Made by a program: the position numbers and the translations under genes
Shown here: positions 1,580 to 64,000 of the stretch, in pieces
How the letters are laid out: each line of letters begins with the position of its first letter
Position numbering within the stretch: position 1 is the first letter of the stretch
Source of the DNA: a candidate division WOR-3 bacterium
GTDB taxonomy: Bacteria; Hydrothermota; Hydrothermia; LBFQ01
Assembly: GCA_039802605.1 (NCBI GenBank)
Contig: JBDRWW010000006.1
Location: forward strand, 44,020-108,019
Reading direction: 5' to 3'
Length of the DNA: 64,000 nt
Notes under the pieces: model-generated
Seen by the model: only the letters and a program-made list of their open reading frames with translations
What the model was told of the DNA's origin: nothing
Database searches by the model: none

Positions 1580-3214
1580 TTATTTATTTTCTTCCGCAAA
1601 CTTATGCGCAACGCAATCGCACTCTATTATAGGCTTAAATGTGCTTTGAACGGTTATAGTTAGGTTTTCACTACCACAACCCGAGTTCGTAAATGTTGTC
1701 GTAACCGTCATGGTGGCGGAGAATGGTTTAAAAGACAAAATCGTTTCATTTCCACCCCTGAAAACAAGCGGATCGTTTATATACACCGGTACATCCGAAA
1801 ACCTAACCCTATCTCCTCCGACAACCCTCATACCCAATAGGTCAAATATTGTATTCTCACTGCCCACGCTACTTACCATTACACCTCCGTTTATGTAATA
1901 TCTGAGCGTTACATCCTGGGTTTTACCCACGGAGTATGCGGCCATAAATACGGTATCAATTGAAGGGTCCTTTAGGTTCCACGGATCCAAAACCCCGCAG
2001 TCGCTATATTTTGCTGATACAACCTTACCCTTATCCGTTTGCCCAATTTTCTTGTTTTTTAGAAAGTTATCCGAAACGAACAAAACATCCTCTCCTGATA
2101 ATCCGAATGTTTGGGCAAATTTGGAATTAAAGTCTATGAAATTCCTACAAGCAAACTTTGAATGCAAGATGTAATTCAATTCGTACTTAACATTGCTGTG
2201 CTCCGATGATACGCTTACCGTTGAGGAAACGTTCCAAGCATAAGGTGCCTTAACCTTAAAGGCCGTTTTGCCCGATGACAATGTGGGTTTTACACCCGGT
2301 AAAATCTTGTTATCCCTTGGACATACCGCCGCAACCTCAAAGGATACATCTATCGGGTTTTGCTGGTTGAAAACATTGCAATCCGGGGGTTGGTATAGAA
2401 CAACGGGGTTTTCTCCCCTTATAATGTACCAACCATCGCCAATATTTTCGCCACTCGTTATCCTCCCCTTTGAGTTTCCGCTTAAACGAACGGCCACCCC
2501 GGCCTTTTTATCGAGTATATCAAACAAACTTTTTCCCTCGGAGTTATTCATTGATGAAAACCTTATGGCCACAAACCTATCTTGAGAAATGTCGGCCTCA
2601 TCAACCACTTGAACCGAATACATTATCATGGTTTCCTTTGTGGCTATCCTCGTAAGGATTGATCCCATTTTTTCCGCTAATTTGTTCGTTATCAAAACTA
2701 TTGATTGCAACACATCCTTTACGGCCGTTGATGGTATCCTGTAAGAAAATGTCTCATACACGGTTTCGCTTTCAAGGTTTATAAGCCAAATCTTACCCAC
2801 CAAGCCATATGAATCTTCACCTATAAGTATATCAACCAGATAGGGAACGCTCCCATATGCCGTATCGTCTTTGTGTAAGGCCGCGGTTAGCGAATCGTTT
2901 ATGAGTTTTGAAAATGTTCCAAAAGGGGTTTCCGTCCAACCCGAACCCACTATTTTTATAGAATTACCATCAACACCCGTGAAATACTCTTGCGCCTTTT
3001 TTATTATCACGGGTAAGTATGTGGTTAAATTTCCGCGAAAGTTTTGGCTATACTTACCTGCGGGGTTTACCGCTATTCTCGCCTTTAAATACACTTCCGG
3101 AGGAGAGCATACCGAGTAAGGTAGTTTTTTGGTTGTGGTGCTCTCCTTACTTTTTTGGGCGTATGTGGGGGATACGAGAAAAGGCAATAAAATAAAAGGA
3201 AAAACCCGTTTCAT
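1580..3214 (-). CDS. secreted protein of unknown function
   Basis: 544-aa ORF with a canonical signal peptide MKRVFPFILLPFLVSPTYAQ. It has several spaced Cys residues and no recognisable catalytic motif. Confidence 0.7.
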   Translation of the reverse strand: MKRVFPFILLPFLVSPTYAQKSKESTTTKKLPYSVCSPPEVYLKARIAVNPAGKYSQNFRGNLTTYLPVIIKKAQEYFTGVDGNSIKIVGSGWTETPFGTFSKLINDSLTAALHKDDTAYGSVPYLVDILIGEDSYGLVGKIWLINLESETVYETFSYRIPSTAVKDVLQSIVLITNKLAEKMGSILTRIATKETMIMYSVQVVDEADISQDRFVAIRFSSMNNSEGKSLFDILDKKAGVAVRLSGNSKGRITSGENIGDGWYIIRGENPVVLYQPPDCNVFNQQNPIDVSFEVAAVCPRDNKILPGVKPTLSSGKTAFKVKAPYAWNVSSTVSVSSEHSNVKYELNYILHSKFACRNFIDFNSKFAQTFGLSGEDVLFVSDNFLKNKKIGQTDKGKVVSAKYSDCGVLDPWNLKDPSIDTVFMAAYSVGKTQDVTLRYYINGGVMVSSVGSENTIFDLLGMRVVGGDRVRFSDVPVYINDPLVFRGGNETILSFKPFSATMTVTTTFTNSGCGSENLTITVQSTFKPIIECDCVAHKFAEENK

Positions 3215-11507: not shown

Positions 11508-12781
11508 ACCACAACATCAACCAGGGGTTTTGCTTTTAAGGTTAAACCGCTAACATCGGTGATCTTAACCTTTACGAATTCACCGGGTTTAAACAACCCT
11601 TCAACAACTACCGTTAAACCGTTTTTTATCTTTCCGGAAGACTCTTTAACGCTTTTCCTACTTATCCCATCAATTAATACCTCTTCTTCCCTTCCCAGGA
11701 AAACCTTTCTCCTTTCAAGGGCATTTTTATTAACCTCGTCTATAAGCCTTCTTTGTCTCAAAATCTTTGTATCCTCATCCACCTGATCCTTGTAGAAGGC
11801 CGCCGGTGTGTTTGGCCTTGGTGAATAAACGAACATAAAAGCCCCGTCAAACTTAACCTTCCTAACGACATCCAAGGTTTCCTCAAAGTCTTCCTCGCTT
11901 TCACCCGGGAATCCCACAATTATATCCGTTGTTATCGTCCCATAAGGCATCAATTCCCTTATCATATACGCCTGTTCAAGGTATTCCGCTTTGTTATAAC
12001 CCCTATTCATCTTCCTCAAAATCCTATCCGAGCCCGCCTGTAAAGGCAAGTGTATCCAATCCGTTATAATCTCGCTTTCCGCAATGGTCTTTAAAACCTT
12101 ATAAGAAAAGTCCCTCGGGTTTGGGCTCGTAAATCTAACCCTCCTTATATTCTTTACATTATCCTCTATAATCCTTAAAAGGTCGGCAAAATCGTATTTC
12201 CCATCAAAATAACTGTTAACATTCTGCCCAAGTAGGGTTATCTCAACAACCCCTTGCCCGTCCAAGGTTTTAACCTCTTCAACTATTTCCTCCGCAGGCC
12301 TTGATATTTCCCTACCCCTCGTATAAGGCACAACGCAAAATGTGCAAAAGTTATCACATCCGTATTGTATGCTAACATACTCGGAATAACTTAAAGCCTT
12401 CCTTTTTGTCCTGTAATGCAAACCCAAATCATAACAAACGACCTTTTTCTCTTCCAATGAACCTAAAAGTTTTGGGAGTTCGTTGTATCCCCTCGTTCCA
12501 ACCACAATATCCGCCCCAAATTCCAAGAGTTTATCGCCTTCCTGTTGAGCCAAACAACCCAGAACGCCTACAAACTTTCCCCTATTTTTATAATGTCTCA
12601 AAAGGTGTTTTGCCTTTCTGGCCGCCTTTTCCCTAACCGTACATGTGTTTATTAAAACGATATCCGCATTTTGTGGATTTTCTGTATATACAAAACCGCT
12701 TTCCTCCAAAATATCCCTGATTATCTCGCTATCCAACTCGTTCATCTGACAACCAAAAGTTTTAATATAAAACCTCCTCAT
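11504..12781 (-). CDS. miaB: tRNA-2-methylthio-N6-dimethylallyladenosine synthase (radical SAM methylthiotransferase)
   Basis: 425 aa with FYIKTFGCQMNELDSE at the N-terminus, the radical-SAM CDNFCTFC motif and a C-terminal TRAM-like region. Confidence 0.85.
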   Translation of the reverse strand: MRRFYIKTFGCQMNELDSEIIRDILEESGFVYTENPQNADIVLINTCTVREKAARKAKHLLRHYKNRGKFVGVLGCLAQQEGDKLLEFGADIVVGTRGYNELPKLLGSLEEKKVVCYDLGLHYRTKRKALSYSEYVSIQYGCDNFCTFCVVPYTRGREISRPAEEIVEEVKTLDGQGVVEITLLGQNVNSYFDGKYDFADLLRIIEDNVKNIRRVRFTSPNPRDFSYKVLKTIAESEIITDWIHLPLQAGSDRILRKMNRGYNKAEYLEQAYMIRELMPYGTITTDIIVGFPGESEEDFEETLDVVRKVKFDGAFMFVYSPRPNTPAAFYKDQVDEDTKILRQRRLIDEVNKNALERRKVFLGREEEVLIDGISRKSVKESSGKIKNGLTVVVEGLFKPGEFVKVKITDVSGLTLKAKPLVDVVV

Positions 12782-18797: not shown

Positions 18798-19030
18798 ATA
18801 TTGTAAAGCAAATAAAAGAAACCTTTGCAAAGTTTTTCAACATAATAATCAATTTGCCCGATTTTCTTGAAGGGATGAAAGATGAGATAAACCGTTTAAC
18901 ATGGCCTGATTGGAACAGCATAGTCGTCGGGACGGTAGGGGTAATAGCCATTTCGCTATTTACCACCGTTTTCGTGTGGATTTCGGACTTCATAATTTCC
19001 CGTATATTGATGATGATAATAGGGGGTTAG
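18794..19030 (+). CDS. secE: preprotein translocase subunit SecE
   Basis: 78 aa with EINRLTWPDWNSIV plus a single C-terminal TM. It occupies the canonical position between rpmG and nusG. Confidence 0.85.
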   Translation: MNIVKQIKETFAKFFNIIINLPDFLEGMKDEINRLTWPDWNSIVVGTVGVIAISLFTTVFVWISDFIISRILMMIIGG

Positions 19031-19032
19031 TC

Positions 19033-19944
19033 GTGACTGGGCAAAAAACCTGGCTTATATTTTGGACTAGGGGTGGAGAGGAATTAAAAACCAAGGAAAA
19101 AATAGAAAAACTTGTAAGAGATTTAAAATTGCAGGATAAAGTTGAAAAGGTGTTCGTACCCACCACTAGAACCACAAAATACAATAAAAAGAGGGTAAAA
19201 CCCAAACTTTACGATATAGTGATAAACAATTTCCCAAAAGATTTACCCTTAGAATTTCCTAAACTAATATCGGCGTATCCCTTAGGGTTTAAGGGTAAGT
19301 TGGCTGGGGGCATTGGGTACGACTACGAAGAAATTTCGAAGAACACTTATAGACTTAAGAAGTTGGACAGGAGTAGGTTATCGGATATATTTAAAAACCT
19401 GTCCGAAAGGGGATTAAAACCCGCTATATTGGGTGTTAAGGAAAAGGAAAGTGAAGAATTGATGAATAAACTATCATCTATGGGTTTCTCGGTTGAAAGG
19501 GTAAAAAGCGCGTTAAAACCCCAAGCTCATGAGATAGAAACACAGCCGATGGTGGTTGAAAAGCCCATGTACAAAGGTTATATTTTCATCTTTATGGAAG
19601 AGGATCAAGCCGTTATAGACAAAATAACCCAAATCATATCAAACACGAGGCCGATTAGGGCAACAGATCCTGCCACGGGTTTGCCCGTATATATACACGC
19701 CAGTGAGGAAGATATAAAGAAGATAGAGGAGCTGATGGCCAGGCAGGAGAGGGAAAAGAGTAGAGAGGCACCGTTTGTGAAAGGTGATAAGGTGAAAATT
19801 ACCGAAGGCACTTTGAAGGGTAGAGAGGGTGAAGTGGTTGATGTGGATCTGGATAAGGGGGTTTTGACGGTTAGGGTAAGCCTTTTTGGAAGGCCACAAG
19901 AGGTTCCGGTAAAATTTACGCAGGTTGAAAGATTAGAAGTATAA
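19033..19944 (+). CDS. nusG: transcription termination/antitermination factor NusG carrying an inserted domain
   Basis: GTG start at 19033, 7 nt after AGGGGG. An NGN N-terminus ([11 protein letters not shown]...VFVPT) and YKGYIFI flank an insert of ~125 aa. The KOW motif [24 protein letters not shown] is present. Confidence 0.9.
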
Positions 19945-51977: not shown

Positions 51978-52386
51978 AACCGAAGGGTAATAATTCCCCG
52001 AGCTTAACCCTTTTAAACCCGTTGTATACCTCCGTATCGCCTTCCCCAAACTCCCACATAACCTGCCTGCAAGCACCACATGGATAAACCTCAACCAATT
52101 CACCCTTAAAAGATGCCACCAAAACTACCGCCAAAAGTTTTCTATAACCCTCGGAAACCCCCTTAAAAATCGCCACCCTTTCCGCACAAACCGTTAAACC
52201 ATACGATGAATTCTCAACATTCACACCAAAAAACCTTTTAACATCCCCCTCCCCATTCTCCATAATTGCACAACTCGATACTAAGAACCGCGAGTAGGGG
52301 GCATAGGAGTTTTGTAAATTTTTTACCACCTCTTGAAAGATGTCCTCAAAGTTCAATCTCAAAATCCCCCCTAAAAGAAAAACCAA
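51955..52386 (-). CDS. cdd: cytidine deaminase
   Basis: 143 aa with zinc motifs CAERVAIF and PCGACRQVMWEF. The start is uncertain (52386, or TTG at 52356). Confidence 0.85.
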   Translation of the reverse strand: MVFLLGGILRLNFEDIFQEVVKNLQNSYAPYSRFLVSSCAIMENGEGDVKRFFGVNVENSSYGLTVCAERVAIFKGVSEGYRKLLAVVLVASFKGELVEVYPCGACRQVMWEFGEGDTEVYNGFKRVKLGELLPFGFRLRRKG

Positions 52387-53143
52387 AATCCGGCTGGTAG
52401 GATGAACCTAAGGAAAAGGAGTAGTTTTTCCTCTTAACCTTTACACCTAGCCTAGGAAAACCGTCCAAGAATCCGCCAAGTATTGCAAAATAAGGGGTAT
52501 CAAAGGATAAGGATACAAATCCGTCCCTTTTGAGTTTAAACCCCCTACCGTCGGGGGAAAAGGCTCCGCCGAAACATAGCATTGCTATACCATTCCTTAA
52601 TGATACCCTTAAATCCCCCTCGGGGAGTGCAAACTCCTTTTTTCCGGTGCCCCATATAACGGGTGATGTTAAAACATTGTTTATGGAAAAAAATGTTAAA
52701 ATGTTTTTTCCCAAATATCCACCGAAAACATCAAAACCCCCACCGCTTCCCCAATCGCTCAAAAACTTTGCATATATAAATTTCCCCTTAAACCCGTAAA
52801 CAAAATCCCCCTTGGTTCTTTGAGTTCTAAAAGAAACCTTTCCCGCCCAAAAATTACCCCTACCTATGACTTCGGGTTGATTATCGGACGATGGTGGCTT
52901 CGTGGTATCGGGAAGGCGGGTTATTAAAACATCCCCAGACCTATAAATTACACCCTCCAATGCGGAGCTTTTATAAGATAATATTCCTCCACCGTAAAAG
53001 TCTCCGGGAATTATGCCCGAGGATATACCCAAGTTAAATCCATCTTTTTGTTTAAGCCCGTATGGGCTTTCCCCAAAAATTGCCGTTTTTGATGTGAATT
53101 CAACAACATTATACTGAAAATTTACGAATTCCAAGGCAAACAT
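52346..53143 (-). CDS. putative outer-membrane beta-barrel protein, unknown family
   Basis: 265 aa with Gly/aromatic alternating beta-strand character and no family recognised. It is similar in size and flavour to ORF 63003-63797. Confidence 0.45.
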   Translation of the reverse strand: MFALEFVNFQYNVVEFTSKTAIFGESPYGLKQKDGFNLGISSGIIPGDFYGGGILSYKSSALEGVIYRSGDVLITRLPDTTKPPSSDNQPEVIGRGNFWAGKVSFRTQRTKGDFVYGFKGKFIYAKFLSDWGSGGGFDVFGGYLGKNILTFFSINNVLTSPVIWGTGKKEFALPEGDLRVSLRNGIAMLCFGGAFSPDGRGFKLKRDGFVSLSFDTPYFAILGGFLDGFPRLGVKVKRKNYSFSLGSSYQPDFGFSFRGDFEIEL

Positions 53144-55545: not shown

Positions 55546-55574
55546 TTTACACAAGAACCCAACAACTTTATAAT
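55546..55574 (+). promoter_or_regulatory. sigma70-like promoter TTTACA-17-TATAAT of the MCP-like/CheY/CheC/TPR/patatin operon
   Basis: TTTACA at 55546-55551, a 17-nt spacer, and TATAAT at 55569-55574. The TTG start at 55585 lies 10 nt downstream with no SD. Confidence 0.55.
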
Positions 55575-55584
55575 ACTTTGAACA

Positions 55585-57873
55585 TTGGAGGGCGTAAAAA
55601 GGTTATGGATTTTCCCATTTATATTAACTGTGGGGCTCCCTTTTGTTTCCCTTTTTGCCGCGGGTTTATTTTCCATTTTTTCTGGTAATATACCCCTTGG
55701 GATATTTTGGTTTTCGCTACTTTTAGGATATATAGCCATATATATACACATCCGCCTTGCAACACCAAAACATATAATAGATGTAATGAAATTCGCAAAG
55801 AATGGAATCCCATTGCCGCCTTCGGTAATAACATATTATTACGATGTAAATCGGGTTGTGGAAAAATTGAGGGAAGAGTTTGTGATAACACCCTTTCAAG
55901 TTGCCAAAAAAATTGATGAGATTTATATTACACTTTCCAAAACCATAAACGAGACAACGGATATTTTGCAAAACATAAACATCCAGATAAACCAAATATC
56001 TTCATCCGTGGACGAAATTTCGAGGGTATTTGAAGAGATAGTCTCCAAAAACTTAACACAACTTTCGGAATCGGCGGATTATAATCAAAAAAATGTGGAA
56101 ACGGGTTTAAAGGACTTGGAGGATAACTTAAAGGTTTTTTATACCGTTGATCAATCTTTTGAGGATTTCACAAAAAGCCTTGAAAATATTAAAAGAAGCC
56201 TCACAAAACTTTCCGAAAATTCTCAAAATCTAGAAGATATAGGGAAAATGATAACCGTTTTGGCATACGAGGTTTCCTTGGGAGCTGCCAAGTATAAAGA
56301 TTTGCCGGGTATAGGAAAACTTTCCCAAGAGATAAGAAACCTTTCCATAAGTTCCAGGGAGGATATTCGGAAAACGCATGAAATTTTGGACAGAATGGGC
56401 ATTACGATAGATTATAACATTAAAGAATCCGAAAGCATTAGGGAAAGTTTAAAGGGTATATCCAATAGGGTCAAGGGTATTAACGAAAACTTCCTTAATA
56501 TTCGCGATTCGGTAAGGATACTCGTTGATAAGTCGGAGACGATAATAAGAACGATAGAAGAAGCCTCCGCATCCATCACCGAGATAAGTGTGGCCTTATA
56601 TGAAATGAATACCGCGGTTCAGGAATTATACTCGGATATGAACTACTTCCAAAAAACATTTGCCGACCTTGAAAAGGAGATTAAAGAAATACTGTTAATT
56701 TATTCGGAACAAAAAAGGAGTCCCAAGGTTGAAAGGATTAGGATCTTATCTTATGCGGTTTTGAGAACTTCATATCCTTTGATATTATTACTGGGAGCCT
56801 TTTATTTCTGGAACCTTGGAAACATTGCGGCATCTTTTATTTTGGGTGCTGGGGGTCTTATGGATCTATTCGCTTTAATCTTAATAAGGCTATCCGCCGC
56901 CGACTTTATAGTTAAATCCATCCGAGGAAATGGAACTTTAACCAATATCATAAATCTGTATGTACCCTTTAATAAGGTTGTTGAGTTTGCCAGAGAAGAA
57001 TTTATTAATAAGCCAAGGGAAATTGCCGAATCGGTATCCTTGGCTTTGGTGTCTTTGCGCGGAAAGTTGGGGGAAATATCCGTTTCTTTGAGACAAATTA
57101 TCGCGCAAATATCCCAAATATCCGCATCAACTTCCGAAATATCGGGTGCCTTTAACGAGGTTTTATTACCAAGTATTGAAGATTTAAAAAGCTCTTCAAA
57201 AATTTCATATGCCAACGCCTTAAAGGGTTTTGAATTCGTAAGTAATAACATAGTGGATTTTGAAAAAACACTGCAATCTATAAGCTCTTTGATGGAAAGT
57301 TTAAAGGGTATTACGGGTTTTGCCCGAGACCTAAACACCATATCATCGGAGATGTTGAAAATAATTGAAAAAATAAAGATACTCTCAATAAACGCCACGG
57401 TGGAGACTTTTAGGCTTAGGGAGGAAACATCATTTGAGGTTATATCCCGCGAGATTAGAGCACTTTCGGAAAAAAGCGGCATCATAATGAGATCCTTGGG
57501 TGATGGTATGGAAATCTTACGAAAAAACATAGAAAATATAGTAAAAGAAAGCGTAGAATGGATGGAGATTTTAAGAAAATCGTCGGAAAATGCCCAAAAA
57601 ATAAAGAGAATTTTTGAAGACATAAAGTTTGGAATAGAATCCTCCGATAGACTAATAGATGACATTTCGCAAGCCATATACGAATCTTCGTCCTCCATTA
57701 ATGAAATAGCAGCGGTATTAAGCGAACTTGACAAAATCGCACAAAAGATAAGCTATACTACCTTAGAAATAAACGATAACTTGCAAATAATTTCCGAAAA
57801 CCTACGCGAACTTGTACCTTCCGGAAAGGAAGAAATGAAAGAAGAGCTTAGTATTCTGAGGGTTGCGGAATGA
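55585..57873 (+). CDS. internally duplicated membrane protein with two degenerate MCP-signalling-like coiled-coil domains
   Basis: 762 aa, TTG start. It has two units of [TM hairpin + ...VVE..REEF... + long heptad-rich region]. The hairpin-tip-like segments are VLAYEVSLGAAKYKDLPGIGKLSQEIRNLS and ILSINATVETFRLREETSFEVISREIRALSEKS (compare the MCP consensus LALNAAIEAARAGE.GRGFAVVA.EVR.LAE.S). Confidence 0.65.
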   Translation: MEGVKRLWIFPFILTVGLPFVSLFAAGLFSIFSGNIPLGIFWFSLLLGYIAIYIHIRLATPKHIIDVMKFAKNGIPLPPSVITYYYDVNRVVEKLREEFVITPFQVAKKIDEIYITLSKTINETTDILQNINIQINQISSSVDEISRVFEEIVSKNLTQLSESADYNQKNVETGLKDLEDNLKVFYTVDQSFEDFTKSLENIKRSLTKLSENSQNLEDIGKMITVLAYEVSLGAAKYKDLPGIGKLSQEIRNLSISSREDIRKTHEILDRMGITIDYNIKESESIRESLKGISNRVKGINENFLNIRDSVRILVDKSETIIRTIEEASASITEISVALYEMNTAVQELYSDMNYFQKTFADLEKEIKEILLIYSEQKRSPKVERIRILSYAVLRTSYPLILLLGAFYFWNLGNIAASFILGAGGLMDLFALILIRLSAADFIVKSIRGNGTLTNIINLYVPFNKVVEFAREEFINKPREIAESVSLALVSLRGKLGEISVSLRQIIAQISQISASTSEISGAFNEVLLPSIEDLKSSSKISYANALKGFEFVSNNIVDFEKTLQSISSLMESLKGITGFARDLNTISSEMLKIIEKIKILSINATVETFRLREETSFEVISREIRALSEKSGIIMRSLGDGMEILRKNIENIVKESVEWMEILRKSSENAQKIKRIFEDIKFGIESSDRLIDDISQAIYESSSSINEIAAVLSELDKIAQKISYTTLEINDNLQIISENLRELVPSGKEEMKEELSILRVAE

Positions 57874-58058
57874 AAGGTAAAAAGTTTGAACTTTTAAAGG
57901 ATTTATTGGATGACCTTATAATACTTTCTATCAACGCGGAAATGCAGGATTACGAACCTATGAGGGTTCTTGCGGGTGATATTAGGGAAATAGCGGAGAG
58001 GATGAAAACCATAATTTTGGAATTGGAGGAGAACTATGACAAGGGTGATGATAATTGA
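57870..58058 (+). CDS. 62-aa protein resembling an isolated MCP hairpin tip
   Basis: MKGKKFELLKDLLDDLIILSINAEMQDYEPMRVLAGDIREIAERMKTIILELEENYDKGDDN. The ATGA overlaps the upstream stop, and there is a 23-nt overlap with cheY. Confidence 0.5.
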   Translation: MKGKKFELLKDLLDDLIILSINAEMQDYEPMRVLAGDIREIAERMKTIILELEENYDKGDDN

Positions 58059-58398
58059 TGATGCAAAGTTTATGAGGACGCTTATAAAAAAGGCCTTGGA
58101 GGATGCGGGTTTTGAGGTTGTGGGGGAGGCGGATAACGGGGAAAAGGCAATAGAGGTTTTTAAAGAAGTCAATCCGGATATAGTTACCCTTGATGTGGTT
58201 ATGCCGGATAAGAGCGGAATAGAGGTTTTAAAAGAAATTCTCAAAATAAAACCGGATGTGAAGGTTATAATAGTTTCGGCTATGGGGCAAACGGATATGA
58301 TAACCGAGGCTTTGAATTTGGGGGCAAAGGATTATGTCGTAAAACCTTTCCAACCCCATACGCTTGTAGAGGTCATAAAAAGGGTTGCACAGTCATGA
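58036..58398 (+). CDS. cheY: CheY-like single-domain response regulator
   Basis: 120 aa with the acidic pocket IIDDA, the phospho-acceptor LDVVMPD, VSAMG and VVKPF. Confidence 0.9.
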   Translation: MTRVMIIDDAKFMRTLIKKALEDAGFEVVGEADNGEKAIEVFKEVNPDIVTLDVVMPDKSGIEVLKEILKIKPDVKVIIVSAMGQTDMITEALNLGAKDYVVKPFQPHTLVEVIKRVAQS

Positions 58399-58967
58399 TT
58401 ATATCGGATGATCAATTGGATGCAATAAGGGAAACCATTAACATATCGGCGGGGCAGAGCGCGACGGCCTTGTCCGAATTATTGGGATGTAGGGTTAATA
58501 TGGAAGTTCCGGAGATAAGGTTTGTGGAAATTAACAAACTCGGCGAAGTTTTGTCGGAGGAAACGAAAAGCTTTTTATCGTTTTTCAGCAACTTTGAGAA
58601 GAATTTTAGCGGGAATATAGTGGTGGCATACGAGGAGAATCAAAAGGAAAAACTCGTAAGCATTGTGATAAATAGGTATGGCATTTCCGTGGATGAGGAA
58701 AACATCCTTGAAGAGGTATCAAACATAGTTTTCGGAGCCTTTGTTGGGGGGCTTTCCAATTTCATAGGGTTAAACATAACATTTTCACCCCCGAAAAAAG
58801 TGAAGGTTTTGGAGGAGTTGGGAAATATATCCGATTCCGTAATCATCCTCGGAGAGGTTTTACTTTTACCCGAGGTAAATGGGAAGATTAAGGCCAAAAT
58901 CCTCATAATACCCACGAGGGAATCCGTTTCACTACTCTTGGATAAATTAAGGGGTTTGCTGGGATGA
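58395..58967 (+). CDS. cheC: CheC/CheX/FliY family CheY-P phosphatase
   Basis: 190 aa. It has an exact D-x3-E-x2-N-x22-P motif at residues 9-39 (DAIRETIN...MEVP). A second near-copy, N-x3-E-x2-N-x22-P (NILEEVSN...FSPP), is also present. Confidence 0.8.
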   Translation: MIISDDQLDAIRETINISAGQSATALSELLGCRVNMEVPEIRFVEINKLGEVLSEETKSFLSFFSNFEKNFSGNIVVAYEENQKEKLVSIVINRYGISVDEENILEEVSNIVFGAFVGGLSNFIGLNITFSPPKKVKVLEELGNISDSVIILGEVLLLPEVNGKIKAKILIIPTRESVSLLLDKLRGLLG

Positions 58968-61156
58968 AGGAATTGTTGAAACTTAAAGAGATTTTGCCCA
59001 AAGATCCGGAAACTTTAAACAATTTGGGTGTGGTATATTACCACCACGGATTGTATAAAGAAGCATTAAAATTGTTTAAAATGGCTTGGTATTACAGCGG
59101 TTATAAACTCAATATTGCAAAGAATAATCTGGAAACTCTGGCAAGGCGTTTGAATATAAACCCGGCGGATATTACCATAGACGAGAAAAAAGATGTAAAT
59201 GACTTGAAGACCATAGAAACACTGATATTCATGGGTCAAGAGGAAAAGGCGGAAATACTGTTAAAGGAGTACATTGAAAGCAACCCCAACATGTTGGATG
59301 CTTTGCGCATGGCCGCGGCTTTATCAAAGAACCTTGGGAAATACGAGGATACGGTTGAATACACGAAAAAAATATTATCCATACGCCCGGACGATGTTGA
59401 TGCGAAAAAGCTTTTAGCGGAAGCCCTGTACAACCTTGGAAAACTTGAAGAGTCTTTGAGTATATTGAAGAATATTGTTAAAGAGCACGAGGATGCGGAA
59501 GCCTATTTCTTGATGTCTTTCGTATATGGTGAAATGGGGGATTACGAAAATGCCGAACTTGCCATGCTTAAGGCCCAGGAGATAAACCCATCTCTATCCG
59601 GAGGGGAGAACATACTAAGCCTATACACCAATACCCCTAAGGCTCCAAAACAGGTAAAACAGGGTACGGAAAGCGGGATAGTGTTGGCAAAGGCTTATTT
59701 GAATAAGGGTTTAATAGAGGAGGCTTCAAGGGAATTGCGAAGGGTAAAGATCGGCACCTTAACATTAAAAGCCCGCAAGGATTACGATTTTATCAAGAGC
59801 GTTTTGGCAATAATAAAGGGGGAGTACGAAGAGGCTTTACAGATCTGCGAGTCCTATAAGGCTTCTATAAGGAGAGAGCCCGATATGTTAAAATTGGGTG
59901 CCGTAGCAAATTTTCAACTGGGAAATATAAGCGAAGCGGTTGATTTATTGCGGGAAGCGAATAACGGAAAGGTTGATGAGTTTATGTGGCTAATATATCA
60001 ATTAAAGAGGAAAGCCGTTGAGATTCCCGAACCCGATAAAAATTTTGCCCATATATACAACTCCGCCGTTTTTATGTTAAACGAGGGGAGATTTGATGAG
60101 GTTTTACGGGTTTTGAACGATAATCGCCCTTATTCCAAGATTTTGAGGGCTAGGGCATATGTGGGGAAGGGTGAATACGAAAGGGGTTTAAAGGAAATAG
60201 AAGGGGTACAAAACTTTGATGCCGATATAATAAGGGCCTTTGTACTGTTTAAACTACAACGATACGATGAGGTTATGAACTTATCCAACACCTTAAAACC
60301 CACATCTAAGGAGTTAAAGTCGGAAACCTTCCTAGTGAATATCCCAAATCTGAGTTATCCCCTACCCATACTCGTGGAATTCCCATACGAGAGGTTTTAC
60401 GGGTCATCTTTGTACGGGATAAAAAAGGCGTTTTCTTATGGTAATATTAAAGCGGTTTTAAAGGTTATTGACCTCAGTATGAGGTTTGGAAAAACGCCCG
60501 AGCACATTAAGTATTTATCCATTGTATCCTTCCTTATCGGTAAAATATCGCTTGCGGAATACCTTTTGGGAAATTTAAAGGGTAAGGGCATTATAGACCT
60601 TGAATCCTTGGAGATCCTCGGTATAATTGAGGAATGGAAGGGCAACGGTAGGGTGGCTTTATCAATATTCGGAGAACTATTAAAAAAGGGCAAGAAAGAA
60701 GCGGCTATGCATATCTTACGGATATTGGTAAAGATGAACCTATACGAAATGGCTTATAACTTTTACAATAAAAACAAATTTCCCGAACATCCGGAAATAA
60801 TGTTTTGGCTTGGTGAGGTTATGTTGGGGTTGGGAAACCTCTCCGAGGCGGAAAGAATAGGCAAAGAATTGATAAAAATGGGAGATGAAAGGGGATATCT
60901 TCTTTTAGGGGAATCTTTGTTTAAAAAGGAGGATTATCATGGGGCGTTGGAAAACTTGATTAAGGTAAAGGGAGGTTATGCCGAGCAGAAAGCCCATTTC
61001 TTGGTGGGTAATATCTATGCTTTGATGGGAAACAACGAGGAGGCGATAAAACATTGGGAAAAGGCCGTTAAATTAAATTACGATAAAAGCATATCATCGC
61101 GCGCGAGTAGAAACCTACAAGGTTTGAAAAACTTCTTCCTAAACCTGAAAAAATGA
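58964..61156 (+). CDS. large TPR-repeat protein
   Basis: 730 aa with many 34-residue TPR-like units (e.g. LNNLGVVYYHHGLYKEALKLFKMA, AEALYNLGKLEESLSILKNI, VGNIYALMGNNEEAIKHWEKAVKLN). Confidence 0.8.
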   Translation: MKELLKLKEILPKDPETLNNLGVVYYHHGLYKEALKLFKMAWYYSGYKLNIAKNNLETLARRLNINPADITIDEKKDVNDLKTIETLIFMGQEEKAEILLKEYIESNPNMLDALRMAAALSKNLGKYEDTVEYTKKILSIRPDDVDAKKLLAEALYNLGKLEESLSILKNIVKEHEDAEAYFLMSFVYGEMGDYENAELAMLKAQEINPSLSGGENILSLYTNTPKAPKQVKQGTESGIVLAKAYLNKGLIEEASRELRRVKIGTLTLKARKDYDFIKSVLAIIKGEYEEALQICESYKASIRREPDMLKLGAVANFQLGNISEAVDLLREANNGKVDEFMWLIYQLKRKAVEIPEPDKNFAHIYNSAVFMLNEGRFDEVLRVLNDNRPYSKILRARAYVGKGEYERGLKEIEGVQNFDADIIRAFVLFKLQRYDEVMNLSNTLKPTSKELKSETFLVNIPNLSYPLPILVEFPYERFYGSSLYGIKKAFSYGNIKAVLKVIDLSMRFGKTPEHIKYLSIVSFLIGKISLAEYLLGNLKGKGIIDLESLEILGIIEEWKGNGRVALSIFGELLKKGKKEAAMHILRILVKMNLYEMAYNFYNKNKFPEHPEIMFWLGEVMLGLGNLSEAERIGKELIKMGDERGYLLLGESLFKKEDYHGALENLIKVKGGYAEQKAHFLVGNIYALMGNNEEAIKHWEKAVKLNYDKSISSRASRNLQGLKNFFLNLKK

Positions 61157-62166
61157 GGGGAAGTATAAGTGCAACCTCAATCCTTGAAGTTTTACAGATG
61201 TTGTCCCTGAGCGGCCGGGAAGGAGTTTTGCATATTAGGAGAAAGGAAGATATTTTAAGCGTAAATGAGGGGGCAAGGATATACATAAAAAACGGGAAGG
61301 TGTGCTTTATATCCATTGAAGGGGCAAAAACCCTCATAGATGCTGCAAAACAAAGGTTGGGTGCGGATTTGAATGTAAAGGAAGAGGAGCAAGTTTTAAA
61401 AATGATATACGATGAAAGAATTTCGGATATAGTTGAAGATATTATAAGGGATAGGCTTTTAATTGTGGCAACATGGAAGGATGGGGAATACGAGTTCGTT
61501 GATGAAACCGTTGACCTTCCCGAAATTTATCCCATATCATCCCTAATTATTTCCGTTGTTAGCTCATTGGACGAAACCGCCGAGGTTATTGATATTTCCC
61601 CATTTGCAATACCCGTAATAGAGCCCAAGGGTAGGGTGGAAGAAAAGCTATCATCCGAAGAATGGAAGGTATTATGTTGGATAAATGGGGAAAGGAATGT
61701 CCTTGAAATTTCGGAATTGTCTTCTTTAAGTTTCTCAAAAACGGTTTTGGGTATAAGGGGTCTGTTGGACAAAGGGATTATAACTTTAAAAGAGCCTATA
61801 AACATTCCGGACAAAGAATCCCTAAAAAAGGAGGTATTGGACCTTTACAGGAGCGGCAGATATTCCGAGGTTATTCAAAAAATAGATAGGTTAATATCCG
61901 TCATGCCCGAGGATAGGGATTTGATACTGATAAAAGCGGAAAGTTTGTATAAAATTGAAAGGTATGAGGAAGTTGTTAGGGTATTATCGCAACTTTTGGA
62001 AAGGGAAAACGACCCCAATTTAAAGAGGTTTTTCGGGTATGCGTTGGTTGGGGCGGGGAGGTTCAAGGAAGCCCTAAGGGTTTTGGAAAGCGTAGGCGAG
62101 GGGGTTTTAAGTGAAATGCTTAGGATGTTGATAAGCGCTTTGAAGGAAAGGGAGGGGTTGATATGA
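61153..62166 (+). CDS. DUF4388 (PATAN-like) domain protein with C-terminal TPR repeats
   Basis: 337 aa. The N-terminus GSISATSILEVLQMLSLSGREGVLHI...IYIKNGKVCFI matches the DUF4388 signature G.L....L.D.LQ.L....TG.L. The C-terminus has TPR-like helices. Confidence 0.7.
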   Translation: MRGSISATSILEVLQMLSLSGREGVLHIRRKEDILSVNEGARIYIKNGKVCFISIEGAKTLIDAAKQRLGADLNVKEEEQVLKMIYDERISDIVEDIIRDRLLIVATWKDGEYEFVDETVDLPEIYPISSLIISVVSSLDETAEVIDISPFAIPVIEPKGRVEEKLSSEEWKVLCWINGERNVLEISELSSLSFSKTVLGIRGLLDKGIITLKEPINIPDKESLKKEVLDLYRSGRYSEVIQKIDRLISVMPEDRDLILIKAESLYKIERYEEVVRVLSQLLERENDPNLKRFFGYALVGAGRFKEALRVLESVGEGVLSEMLRMLISALKEREGLI

Positions 62167-63056
62167 GGGCTTTGGTATTAAGTGGAGGATCTACGAGGGG
62201 TGCCTTGCAGGTTGGGGCGTTAAGGGCGTTGGTTGAAAGGGGTTTTGAATTCGACCTAATAATTGGGGTTTCAATAGGCTCCTTAAACGGCGTTTTCTTC
62301 GCGCATAATCCCGGTATGGAAACGGTTAAAAAACTTGAAAATATATGGCTATCCGTAAAAAAGAAAGATATATTTCCCGAAGGTAGGGTGAAGGCCTTGA
62401 TAAGGGTTATAAGTAATAAGAAGAGTTTGTTTTCAAACGACGCCCTTTACAAATTCGTTTTAAAGAACACACCCGTTATGACATTTGCGGAGTTGAAGGT
62501 GCGAACCCTTATACCCGCGGTTGATATAAAAACGAAGGATGTGTATGTTTTTGGGAAGGACCCTTACGATTCGGTTCCCGATGCCTTAATGGCCTCCTCC
62601 GCTTTACCCCCCTATTTCCCCCCTTGGAAGTATAAGGGAATGATGCTAATAGACGGGGGGTTTTACAGTAACCTTCCGTATGATATTGCCATAAACGAAG
62701 GGGCTAAGGAAATAGTGGCCTTACATATTACGGGTGGCAGGTCATTTGACGACGAAATATACAATATATATGGAATTTTGGCAAAATCGGTGGGAATTTT
62801 ACTTGAAGCGAGGTTAAAGGAGCAGGTAGAGATAGCAAAAAAGAAAAGGGCTAAGGTTTTGTATATACCCCTTGAACCCCCCGTTGATGTATCGATTTTT
62901 GATTTTACAAAAACGAAATTGTTAATAGAAATGGGATACGAGCAAGCCGTTAAGGCTTTGGAAGAGAGGGAAAAAGATGGGTTTGCAAACAGGATGAAAG
63001 GTTTATTTAAAAAGATAACCGATTTGAAGGGTGTTCTTACTTCCAAAAAGTCCTAA
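62163..63056 (+). CDS. patatin-like phospholipase
   Basis: 297 aa with the oxyanion motif LSGGSTRG, the nucleophile elbow GVSIGSL (G-x-S-x-G), and the catalytic Asp in IDGG. Confidence 0.85.
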   Translation: MRALVLSGGSTRGALQVGALRALVERGFEFDLIIGVSIGSLNGVFFAHNPGMETVKKLENIWLSVKKKDIFPEGRVKALIRVISNKKSLFSNDALYKFVLKNTPVMTFAELKVRTLIPAVDIKTKDVYVFGKDPYDSVPDALMASSALPPYFPPWKYKGMMLIDGGFYSNLPYDIAINEGAKEIVALHITGGRSFDDEIYNIYGILAKSVGILLEARLKEQVEIAKKKRAKVLYIPLEPPVDVSIFDFTKTKLLIEMGYEQAVKALEEREKDGFANRMKGLFKKITDLKGVLTSKKS

Positions 63057-63797
63057 GAAAGTGTATGAGTAGTCAAAGGTTATACTTTTATACTCCAAAC
63101 CCCCAAAAAGGGATAGCCCGCTTAGAAAATCCAAACCATAACCGCCGTTCAACCACCTATACCTACTATCATACGCAAAACCCAAATTGAGTATGTTTAT
63201 ACCCAACTGCCCCCCGAGTTTAAAGGAAAAGCCCGAGGAGGAATATCCGTTTATTTCCAGAAAACCGTAAAACCTATCGTTGTATATCCTATCCCCTAAG
63301 GATAATCTAAAAGGCAAAACATCCCTTAAAACTCCTATTGGAAAAACCTCATATCCCAAATTATCGACAATAGCATAAACTTCGTTTTTAAACGCTTTTA
63401 ACTCCCAATACCTTGAAGCCAAGATGTAAATGTTTATTCCCAAACCCGTTTCATTTGGGGCCAAACCTATATAACCCAAACCCACACCCGAAACTATGCG
63501 GTATTGTTTAAAGTCAAAAATTTTACCCGCGGAAAACCTTACAAAGTTCGAAGAGAATTTACCTATCACTTCACCTTGATCGTTTGTTAAATCCATATTG
63601 CCGGATGAAAAAAACCTAAGATTCCCCCAAAAACCCTTGTATTCACCCCCTACCTCACCCCCAAACATACCCGCAACCCAGTTATAACCCGAAGAATACG
63701 CATACGAGGGCTTATAATATTCGGCCTTTAAAGAAAAAACCGAAAAATCGTTTAAGAATATGTCATAAGCAACGGCAAAGGATATTATAAGCGTCAT
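63003..63797 (-). CDS. putative outer-membrane beta-barrel protein, unknown family
   Basis: 264 aa with a short hydrophobic N-terminus MTLIISFAVA, a Gly/Tyr/Phe-rich alternating pattern, and a C-terminus ...LQIGYLFK. Confidence 0.5.
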   Translation of the reverse strand: MTLIISFAVAYDIFLNDFSVFSLKAEYYKPSYAYSSGYNWVAGMFGGEVGGEYKGFWGNLRFFSSGNMDLTNDQGEVIGKFSSNFVRFSAGKIFDFKQYRIVSGVGLGYIGLAPNETGLGINIYILASRYWELKAFKNEVYAIVDNLGYEVFPIGVLRDVLPFRLSLGDRIYNDRFYGFLEINGYSSSGFSFKLGGQLGINILNLGFAYDSRYRWLNGGYGLDFLSGLSLFGGLEYKSITFDYSYTFLGLFGSKNTLQIGYLFK

Positions 63798-64000
63798 TTT
63801 TCCAGATTGGCAAACAATTCATCAACCTTTTTCCTAAGTTCGGATACCTTTTCCGCCGCTTCCCCTTTGAGACCCCTGCCCTTTTCCTCTATTTCCCTTT
63901 CCAATTGGTCTTTGATCTCCCTAAGCCTTTTTAATGTATCTTTACCCCTTTTTGCGATCTTCCCCCTAACTTCTTTACCCGTGTAAGGTGTGGTTAGAAG
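63794..64000 (-). CDS. YtxH-like protein (C-terminal part, 5' end outside window)
   Basis: The frame is open from the window edge to the TGA at 63794-63796, overlapping the downstream ATG as ATGA. Translation: ...TPYTGKEVRGKIAKRGKDTLKRLREIKDQLEREIEEKGRGLKGEAAEKVSELRKKVDELFANLEK. The P.TGKE.R motif plus a charged helix is typical of YtxH/DUF948-like proteins. Confidence 0.5.
   Translation of the reverse strand, partial: LLTTPYTGKEVRGKIAKRGKDTLKRLREIKDQLEREIEEKGRGLKGEAAEKVSELRKKVDELFANLEK

Follow-up and report, generated by a model that had tools for sequence, protein, structure and literature searches.

We analysed a stretch of 64,000 nucleotides of DNA from a candidate division WOR-3 bacterium (assembly GCA_039802605.1, contig JBDRWW010000006.1, positions 44,020 to 108,019; the whole stretch is hereafter called the window), in which seven overlapping genes on the forward strand (g1 to g7) combine proteins of chemosensory type with tetratricopeptide repeat (TPR) proteins, a PATAN domain and a patatin-like lipase. 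The first six of these genes are the conserved unit, found only in a small thermophilic clade of WOR-3 bacteria (the window lineage, Candidatus Caldipriscus and the metagenome-assembled genome (MAG) S146_79). We tentatively interpret this unit as a Che-derived, CheA/CheW-independent phospho-switch operon of thermophilic WOR-3 bacteria ('Caldipriscota'), whose output would run through TPR and PATAN adaptors and possibly reach a type IV pilus-like machine. Every domain of the operon is known, and the association of PATAN with CheY and a receptor resembling methyl-accepting chemotaxis proteins (MCPs) recalls the cyanobacterial Tax/Pix systems; what appears to be new is the combination of a tandem MCP with a free-standing mimic of its tip, accompanied by CheY and CheC, and by a TPR and a PATAN-TPR protein in place of CheA and CheW.

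Homologues were searched in two protein libraries of 5.8 billion and 1.8 billion proteins. The window comes from uncultured hot-spring thermophiles with kinship to Candidatus Caldipriscus. The nearest named relatives are Caldipriscus MAGs and the WOR-3 MAG S146_79, and identical proteins are present in the MAGs GCA_0398025xx-0398028xx. The order of g1-g6 and their overlapping junctions are kept in three lineages that differ in their upstream neighbours: the window lineage, including locus L007 (77-98% identity per gene), the Caldipriscus lineage (loci L008-L010, L022-L026, L029 and L030), and the marine hydrothermal MAG S146_79 (L011/L036). At least ten independent loci carry the six translationally coupled core genes in intact form, and these genes are under purifying selection: in comparison with a close relative, g1 and g2 have a ratio of nonsynonymous to synonymous substitutions (dN/dS) of 0.21 and g3-g6 one of 0.06-0.09, and synonymous sites are saturated against the other lineages. 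Across lineages, g1 has changed fastest (33-41% identity), and CheY (g3; 69-80%) and g5 (61-64%) slowest. No closer relatives of g1, g4 and g6 outside the clade were recovered from the libraries, in which g4 and g1 otherwise meet ordinary CheCs and MCPs, and the combination of g1-g6 was seen in no inspected locus outside the WOR-3 clade. A preliminary description of this DNA had regarded the seven genes as a self-contained, non-canonical Che-like module, and g1-g6 are indeed conserved as a unit across lineages with saturated synonymous sites; the order of all seven genes is not, as g7 is absent in Caldipriscus. The families named in that description (MCPsignal, Response_reg, CheC, TPR, DUF4388/PATAN with TPR, and Patatin) were all found by profile searches, with MCPsignal (63.7 bits; cut-off 34.6) and CheC (61.3 bits; cut-off 22) both above their cut-offs. 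It had also failed to recognise a described system in this gene combination, and literature searches on PATAN, DUF4388, CheA-less CheC/CheY and chemosensory-plus-patatin arrangements yielded no description of it either.

The receptor-like protein g1, in which Pfam MCPsignal is PF00015, is a tandem duplication of a module composed of two transmembrane (TM) segments and an MCP-type helical hairpin that has its full length, about 300 residues. Module A (residues 60-385) and module B (445-762) align with each other over 301 columns (hhalign probability 99.7%, E 4e-27), and each half is preceded by a hydrophobic pair of helices (~8-56 and ~389-440) connected by a loop of only a few residues, which gives four TM segments in all; no periplasmic sensor, HAMP or PAS domain was found in g1. 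As the four-TM anchor is loop-less, a membrane-borne or cytoplasmic cue is suggested as the signal. Module B and the cytoplasmic domain of a T. maritima chemoreceptor (2CH7) align over their whole lengths (E 1e-8). The AlphaFold2 model of g1 (mean pLDDT 64.5, which is moderate; 70-89 within the helices) contains two helical hairpins, whose arms measure 128-152 residues and whose turns fall at ~231-242 and ~612-615, and a model hairpin compared with 2ch7_A by Foldseek reached a target-normalised TM-score of 0.79. The two full-length hairpins may be interpreted as a pseudo-dimer within a single chain.

The tips of MCP hairpins dock CheA and CheW and assemble into trimers of dimers. Scored over a 37-residue core against the consensus of eight diverse MCPs, the tip of module B keeps 14 of the 37 consensus residues (38%) and that of module A 9 (24%), compared with 23-34 in the eight MCPs themselves; the turn of module B is one residue shorter, and all three of its glycines are replaced. 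The highly conserved tip of the reference MCPs (consensus QTNLLALNAAIEAARAGExGRGFAVVAxEVRxLA) is thus not found in g1, in line with the earlier proposal that the tips had drifted away from the CheA/CheW-binding consensus.

Directly behind g1 lies g2, which has no Pfam match but is a real gene, because it is present in every lineage that has the operon (57-62 residues), with 23 invariant positions and a dN/dS of 0.21-0.30. It appears to be a shortened copy of an MCP hairpin tip: its profile aligns with the tip of module B (hhalign E 3.5e-4) but lacks five residues at the turn, and its motif LSINAEM...RVLAxxVRxIAE encloses a turn that is 5-6 residues shorter than that of an MCP tip. The hidden Markov model (HMM) of g2 matched canonical MCP tips over its full length in two proteins (P0048, P0046) and with the C-terminal arm only in two others (P0049, P0050). 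In column shuffles, the real scores against canonical MCPs (23.5; shuffles 10.5 ± 2.1) and against module B (28.3; shuffles 11.8 ± 2.3) were reached by none of 120 shuffles in either case, and the MCP-tip-like character first ascribed to the miniprotein is upheld by these matches.

The receiver g3 scored 111 bits against Pfam Response_reg, with CheY_Halo as its best NCBIfam match, and its full phospho-acceptor site (D8, D9, D53, S81, Y100 and K103) is invariant in five orthologues (dN/dS 0.06), as expected of the canonical CheY that had been recognised here. CheC dephosphorylates phosphorylated CheY (CheY-P). The profile of g4 matches T. maritima CheC (1XKR/2F9Z) with E 3e-15, and its first site, D9-x3-E13-x2-N16-x22-P39, corresponds exactly to the D-x3-E-x2-N-x22-P motif that had been reported for it; a second site, x103-x3-E107-x2-N110-x22-P133, can be added, and the E, N and P of both sites are invariant in five orthologues. 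Because g4 misses the cut-off of the NCBIfam CheC equivalog (82.9 vs 250), it appears to represent a divergent CheC subfamily. Scores in this family fall from at least 280 bits within the clade to at most 77 bits for the nearest outgroup CheCs, and the two outgroup CheCs that were inspected are located in canonical operons, one (L017) with cheA, cheW and cheD, the other (L018) with cheW, cheD, cheB, cheR, fliM and flagellar genes.

The partners of such canonical operons are not linked to g1-g6. Pfam annotation of the called genes in the whole 64-kb window and in 10 kb downstream of it revealed no CheA (Hpt, dimerisation, HATPase_c and CheW-like domains), no CheW (PF01584), no CheR or CheB_methylest domain and no flagellar or pilus gene, and the flanks of the orthologous loci likewise contained no CheA or CheW. 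This agrees with what had been read from the 64 kb before, and an ordinary cheA-cheW pair just outside the window, which would have made this a standard che operon, was encountered neither in the 10 kb downstream nor within 4.5 kb upstream of g1 on two orthologous contigs. The genes around the operon are housekeeping genes (among others, ribosomal proteins, RNA polymerase, MreBC, HtrA, Ddl, methionine synthase and transporters). For the 'Pyropristinus' T1 MAG, no flagellar genes have been reported, and only cheB, cheY and cheC were listed (PMC4791363).

In the place of CheA and CheW, the operon carries two proteins for which no TM segment is predicted. Many TPR families of Pfam and NCBIfam match g5, without any other domain, and none of the other large proteins in the cluster is as well conserved as g5. 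The second protein, g6, matches DUF4388 (PF14332) over residues 3-142 (54 bits; cut-off 25) and, in addition, TPR_19; its AlphaFold2 model (pLDDT 73.9) has a mixed helix-strand N-terminal part (1-213, comprising PATAN and a small helical region) followed by helical repeats (221-336). Sequence and fold searches of the PDB with g6 returned TPR matches only, and no solved PATAN structure was found among them. No receiver is fused C-terminally to the PATAN domain of g6; TPR repeats take that position, and the receiver is a separate gene (g3). An HMM search with g6 was dominated by TPR proteins, but two distant proteins (P0140 and P0151) have the same PATAN-plus-TPR architecture. None of the distant PATAN loci that we inspected (L037-L040, L031, L027 and L021) contains the g1-g6 system: the acidobacterial loci L037-L040 have GlmU, a small TPR protein and a hybrid kinase instead, L021 has Roadblock genes, in L027, a REC-PATAN protein (REC, receiver domain), CheY and CheW occur together, and in L031, the PATAN gene has no linked signalling gene.

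A separate observation concerns three of these distant loci (L039 5036-12122, L037 and L040), which derive from MAGs of thermophilic 'Acidobacteria' with a GC content of ~36%. Beside a PAS-rich hybrid histidine kinase, they share a conserved block with genes for a small TPR protein, a GlmU-like nucleotidyl/acetyltransferase, a PATAN protein and a coiled-coil protein of DivIC-like type; this recurring neighbourhood of PATAN has no relation to the Che-like operon and appears to be undescribed.

The reading that we prefer, as a tentative one, may be spelled out as follows. The receptor-like protein g1, together with g2 (either bound at the diverged tips or competing for them), would form a membrane platform that recruits the TPR and PATAN-TPR adaptors g5 and g6 in place of CheA and CheW. 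CheY would receive its phosphoryl group from an unlinked kinase or a small donor molecule and would be reset by CheC, and CheY-P would toggle the adaptors, two separate proteins thereby replacing the covalent PATAN-REC fusion of the cyanobacterial PatA-type regulators. PATAN would then act on an envelope machine, the likeliest target being the ATPase or platform of a type IV pilus or of a type II secretion-type apparatus, by analogy with Synechocystis, in which PATAN binds PilB1 and PilC (bioRxiv 10.1101/2021.06.11.447907; PMC10519157). The view of PATAN as an output domain is also in keeping with the link of PATAN genes to MglA/MglB polarity modules (PMC4316618), and pili are present in a cultured relative from WOR-3, for which no motility was seen (PMC12285271).

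Several points weigh against this reading. Module B of g1 retains the tip signature residues N603, E607, R610, F617, E623 and R625, so that this module may still dock CheA/CheW to some degree; the confidence of the g1 model is, as stated, only moderate. The genome-wide absence of CheA and CheW rests on incomplete MAGs and on one published analysis (PMC4791363), no candidate emerged for the kinase or phospho-donor that would act on CheY, and there is no pilus gene in the window; a pilus output would, for this organism, follow by analogy.

A second account, which we consider somewhat unlikely, starts from the receptor array. An MCP array freed from CheA and CheW would, according to this account, dock the TPR and PATAN proteins at its pseudo-dimeric tips, g2 would act as a 'tip decoy' that competes for the interface or completes it, and CheY-P and CheC would together gate the resulting complex. 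The MCP fold would then have a kinase-independent mode of output, in a deep-branching thermophile that is reported to be without flagellar genes.

It is unlikely that g1-g6 are the accessory part of an ordinary pathway whose CheA, CheW and perhaps CheR/CheB are encoded elsewhere, with g1 as an unusual MCP that still forms arrays with them. The match of g1 to MCPsignal above threshold, the full T. maritima-type length of its hairpin and the six signature residues (N, E, R, F, E, R) kept by module B would all suit such a pathway, as would the intact active sites of CheC and CheY, and, given the incompleteness of the MAGs, the 'cheB' reported in Pyropristinus T1 (PMC4791363) might belong to it. 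However, the same published list for the lineage names cheB, cheY and cheC only and no flagellar genes, cheA and cheW were met neither in the 64 kb and the 10 kb beyond nor in the flanks of the orthologous loci, and the low identity of both tips to the consensus, together with the shortened and glycine-free turn of module B, argues against the docking of the usual partners. Moreover, the operon includes TPR and PATAN proteins that are conserved more strongly than the receptor itself.

An alternative that we regard as quite unlikely keeps the CheA-less phospho-switch and its TPR/PATAN adaptors but directs the output to cell polarity, division or envelope biogenesis instead of pili. Heterocyst patterning in Anabaena is controlled by PatA, the founding PATAN protein, and PATAN proteins have reportedly been linked to the divisome. 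PATAN genes have been linked to MglA/MglB polarity modules (PMC4316618, citing Makarova et al. 2006), and on a high-GC contig from a soil metagenome (L021, Ga0126377_10095917, 292-2661) a distant PATAN-TPR gene precedes genes for a TPR-Roadblock/LC7 fusion and for another Roadblock/LC7 protein, an MglB-type polarity context for the PATAN-TPR architecture. The lack of observed motility in the cultured WOR-3 isolate (PMC12285271) also fits such an output, and so does the position of the operon between envelope-related genes, with htrA and ddl upstream and outer-membrane-like proteins on both sides. On the other hand, no division or MglA/MglB gene is present in the operon or in the window, the upstream neighbours are not conserved between lineages, and PilB and PilC are the only experimentally defined partners of PATAN that we met in the cited work.

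The last gene of the operon stands apart from the other six. Its product, g7, scored 117.6 bits against Patatin (PF01734), has an intact Ser-Asp dyad and carries the motifs G8-G9-S-T-R12-G13, G35-V-S37-I-G39 and D164-G-G, which are kept in the S146_79 orthologue; the three motifs reported earlier are therefore all present, but the glycine loop is GGSTRG, with Ser as its third residue, and not GGxRG. The copy of S146_79 is 71% identical to g7 (dN/dS 0.09) and also overlaps g6 by 4 nt. No patatin gene was found in any of the Caldipriscus-type loci examined (L008-L010, L022-L026, L029 and L030), where g6 is directly followed by the convergent gene of unknown function that follows g7 in the window, and in L007 (CAYRSH010000003.1), a 93%-identical relative, the patatin gene has a frameshifting 38-bp deletion at 11570-11580 (~window 62728-62765) that removes the conserved patatin block ITGGRSFDDEIYN; this copy is either a pseudogene or the product of an assembly error. 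Because it is missing in all Caldipriscus loci and frameshifted in L007, the patatin is a clade-specific accessory outside the conserved six-gene core. It would have been added to the 3' end of the operon, or retained there, in the window lineage and in S146_79.

It is clearly improbable, then, that the lipase is the centre of the system, that is, that a Che-like module senses the state of the membrane through the four-TM, loop-less g1 and controls the patatin in order to remodel the membrane or to deploy it as a toxic effector or one of defence. A membrane-borne signal would be plausible for a g1 that has no extracytoplasmic domain, and the patatin gene is translationally coupled to g6 by an ATGA junction and well conserved between two lineages; furthermore, the best NCBIfam and PADLOC matches of g7 are lipase effectors of the type found in cyclic oligonucleotide-based antiphage signalling systems (CBASS). 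These matches are limited, since CBASS_lipase covers the catalytic half only with 67.9 bits (cut-off 200), and in PADLOC, g7 reached 72 bits, compared with at most 26 bits, on coiled-coil or REC regions, for the other operon proteins, none of which convincingly matches a defence model. The surrounding genes are housekeeping genes, and the loss of the patatin from loci in which g1-g6 are fully conserved, as well as its inactivation by the deletion in L007, shows that it is not the conserved end or output of the operon. The 'control of a phospholipase' proposed in the preliminary description is hence at most a clade-specific add-on.

We also considered an anti-phage defence system as a candidate and rejected it: only the lipase matches PADLOC convincingly, its CBASS_lipase score is far below the cut-off, and there is no cyclase or other defence gene.

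That these genes merely persist, without current function, from a chemotaxis operon that has been decaying since flagella were lost is strongly disfavoured and extremely improbable: the lineage has no reported flagellar genes (PMC4791363), the receptor is the fastest-evolving protein and its tips are degenerate, but at least ten independent loci have all six core genes intact, dN/dS is 0.06-0.21, CheY and CheC show no change in their catalytic residues, and the overlapping junctions and the -10 box are conserved.

The features of the operon are compiled in Table 1. The seven open reading frames (ORFs) on the forward strand, preceded by a single promoter, have the positions given in the preliminary description, and the ATGA start/stop overlaps at 57870, 58395, 58964, 61153 and 62163, as well as the overlap of 23 nt between g2 and g3 at 58036, can be read directly in the sequence and recur as overlapping junctions in the orthologous loci. 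With 11 of 12 matches, TTTACA-17-TATAAT is the top promoter-like site of the region on the forward strand. Its TATAAT box (window 55569-55574) is found 10-11 nt 5' of the TTG start of g1 in the window and in L007, L009, L010 and L029 (four of the five orthologous loci checked), which cover the window lineage and Caldipriscus and have differing upstream genes; the -35 box is not conserved. The conserved TATAAT box in front of the TTG codon supports both the start of the operon at this site and the long form of g1. In the deposited annotation of related assemblies, g1 starts at Met68 (55786), which cuts off the first two TM helices; we prefer the long form because the N-terminal region is conserved across orthologues. 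The operon mRNA is probably leaderless or nearly so, starting at the TTG codon, because the -10 box ends only 10 nt before it.

Table 1. Features of the Che-like operon, with positions counted from the first nucleotide of the window.
Feature	Position	Strand	Length and description
Sigma-70-type promoter, TTTACA-17-TATAAT	55546-55574	+	11/12 matches; 10 nt between the -10 box and the TTG codon of g1
g1	55585-57873	+	762 aa, TTG start; predicted inner-membrane tandem MCP-like protein
g2	57870-58058	+	62 aa; acidic miniprotein, putative shortened copy of the MCP hairpin tip
g3	58036-58398	+	120 aa; single-domain CheY-type receiver
g4	58395-58967	+	190 aa; CheC-class CheY-P phosphatase by sequence, two intact active sites
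g5	58964-61156	+	730 aa; cytoplasmic all-TPR protein, presumed scaffold/adaptor
g6	61153-62166	+	337 aa; PATAN (DUF4388/PatA_N), small winged-helix-like helical region and C-terminal TPR; presumed output adaptor
g7	62163-63056	+	297 aa; predicted patatin-like phospholipase, clade-specific accessory

On its 3' side, the operon meets a convergent gene for a 264-residue protein (63003-63797, reverse strand), which shares 54 nt with the 3' end of g7, has an outer-membrane beta-barrel-like sequence without any Pfam or PADLOC match, and immediately follows the operon in all lineages, both those with and those without the patatin. A promoter-like sequence on the reverse strand (TTGCCA-18-TATAAT, 63784-63813, 11 of 12 matches) is situated at the start of this gene; its true start may lie further downstream, because the -10 box falls just inside the longest ORF. 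A second gene of similar composition, for a 265-residue protein without family annotation, is found at 52346-53143. Paralogy of these two flanking outer-membrane-like genes was considered and rejected, as no sequence similarity was found between them. Elsewhere in the window, a NusG homologue (18910-19944, forward strand) is unusually long (303 residues in related assemblies) and shows a faint match to the NusG N-terminal domain and a KOW motif, which suggests that it carries a large insertion, and an ORF of 544 codons (1580-3214, reverse strand) had no Pfam match at E <= 0.001.

The present understanding of MCP signalling hairpins is almost wholly that of controllers of CheA through CheW, and the WOR-3/Caldipriscota, which are dominant in some streamer communities at 80 °C, are largely uncultured. 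If the CheA/CheW-independent switch proposed here is correct, the conserved and selected operon with its receptor fold, CheY and CheC, the exchange of CheA/CheW for TPR and PATAN proteins, the tandem receptor and the separate tip copy would show that the tip of an MCP can be repurposed as a docking site for partners other than CheA and CheW. The operon would also be a natural 'split' PatA-type regulator, in which CheY and PATAN are separate proteins, and could help to dissect how a receiver controls the output of PATAN. The tip mimic g2 might represent a new class of small proteins that regulate receptor arrays, and the system as a whole would offer a first handle on the control of behaviour or of surface organelles in the WOR-3/Caldipriscota.

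Four known systems invite comparison. The patatins of the CapV/CBASS-effector and RssA types share with g7 the glycine-rich loop, GxSxG and DGG, but g7 scores below the equivalog cut-off, is accompanied by no cyclase or defence gene and is dispensable in its family. The modules of PATAN-TPR with MglB/Roadblock proteins, as in L021, resemble the operon in the architecture of g6 and in the presence of another, adjoining TPR protein; unlike them, the operon has no Roadblock, MglB or MglA protein, the partners of g6 are MCP-like, CheY and CheC proteins, and identity is ~25%. The chemotaxis systems of Thermotoga and Bacillus with CheC (MCP-CheW-CheA-CheY-CheC/CheD) are matched in the length of the g1 hairpin, which equals that of 2CH7, in the full CheY active site of g3, and in g4, which has two sites and is homologous to T. 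maritima CheC. The operon differs from them in that CheA, CheW, CheD, CheR, CheB and flagellar genes are not linked to it, in that g1 is a tandem protein with diverged tips and without a sensor domain, in the additional miniprotein g2, and in the TPR and PATAN genes that sit where CheW and CheA would be. From the cyanobacterial Tax/Pix systems with PatA-type regulators, it is set apart by the lack of CheA (PixL) and CheW (PixI), by the presence of CheC, by a PATAN domain that is fused to TPR and not to REC, with the receiver as a separate protein, and by a link to type IV pili that is drawn by analogy; what it has in common with them is that PATAN, a CheY-type receiver and an MCP-like receptor are encoded together in one operon.

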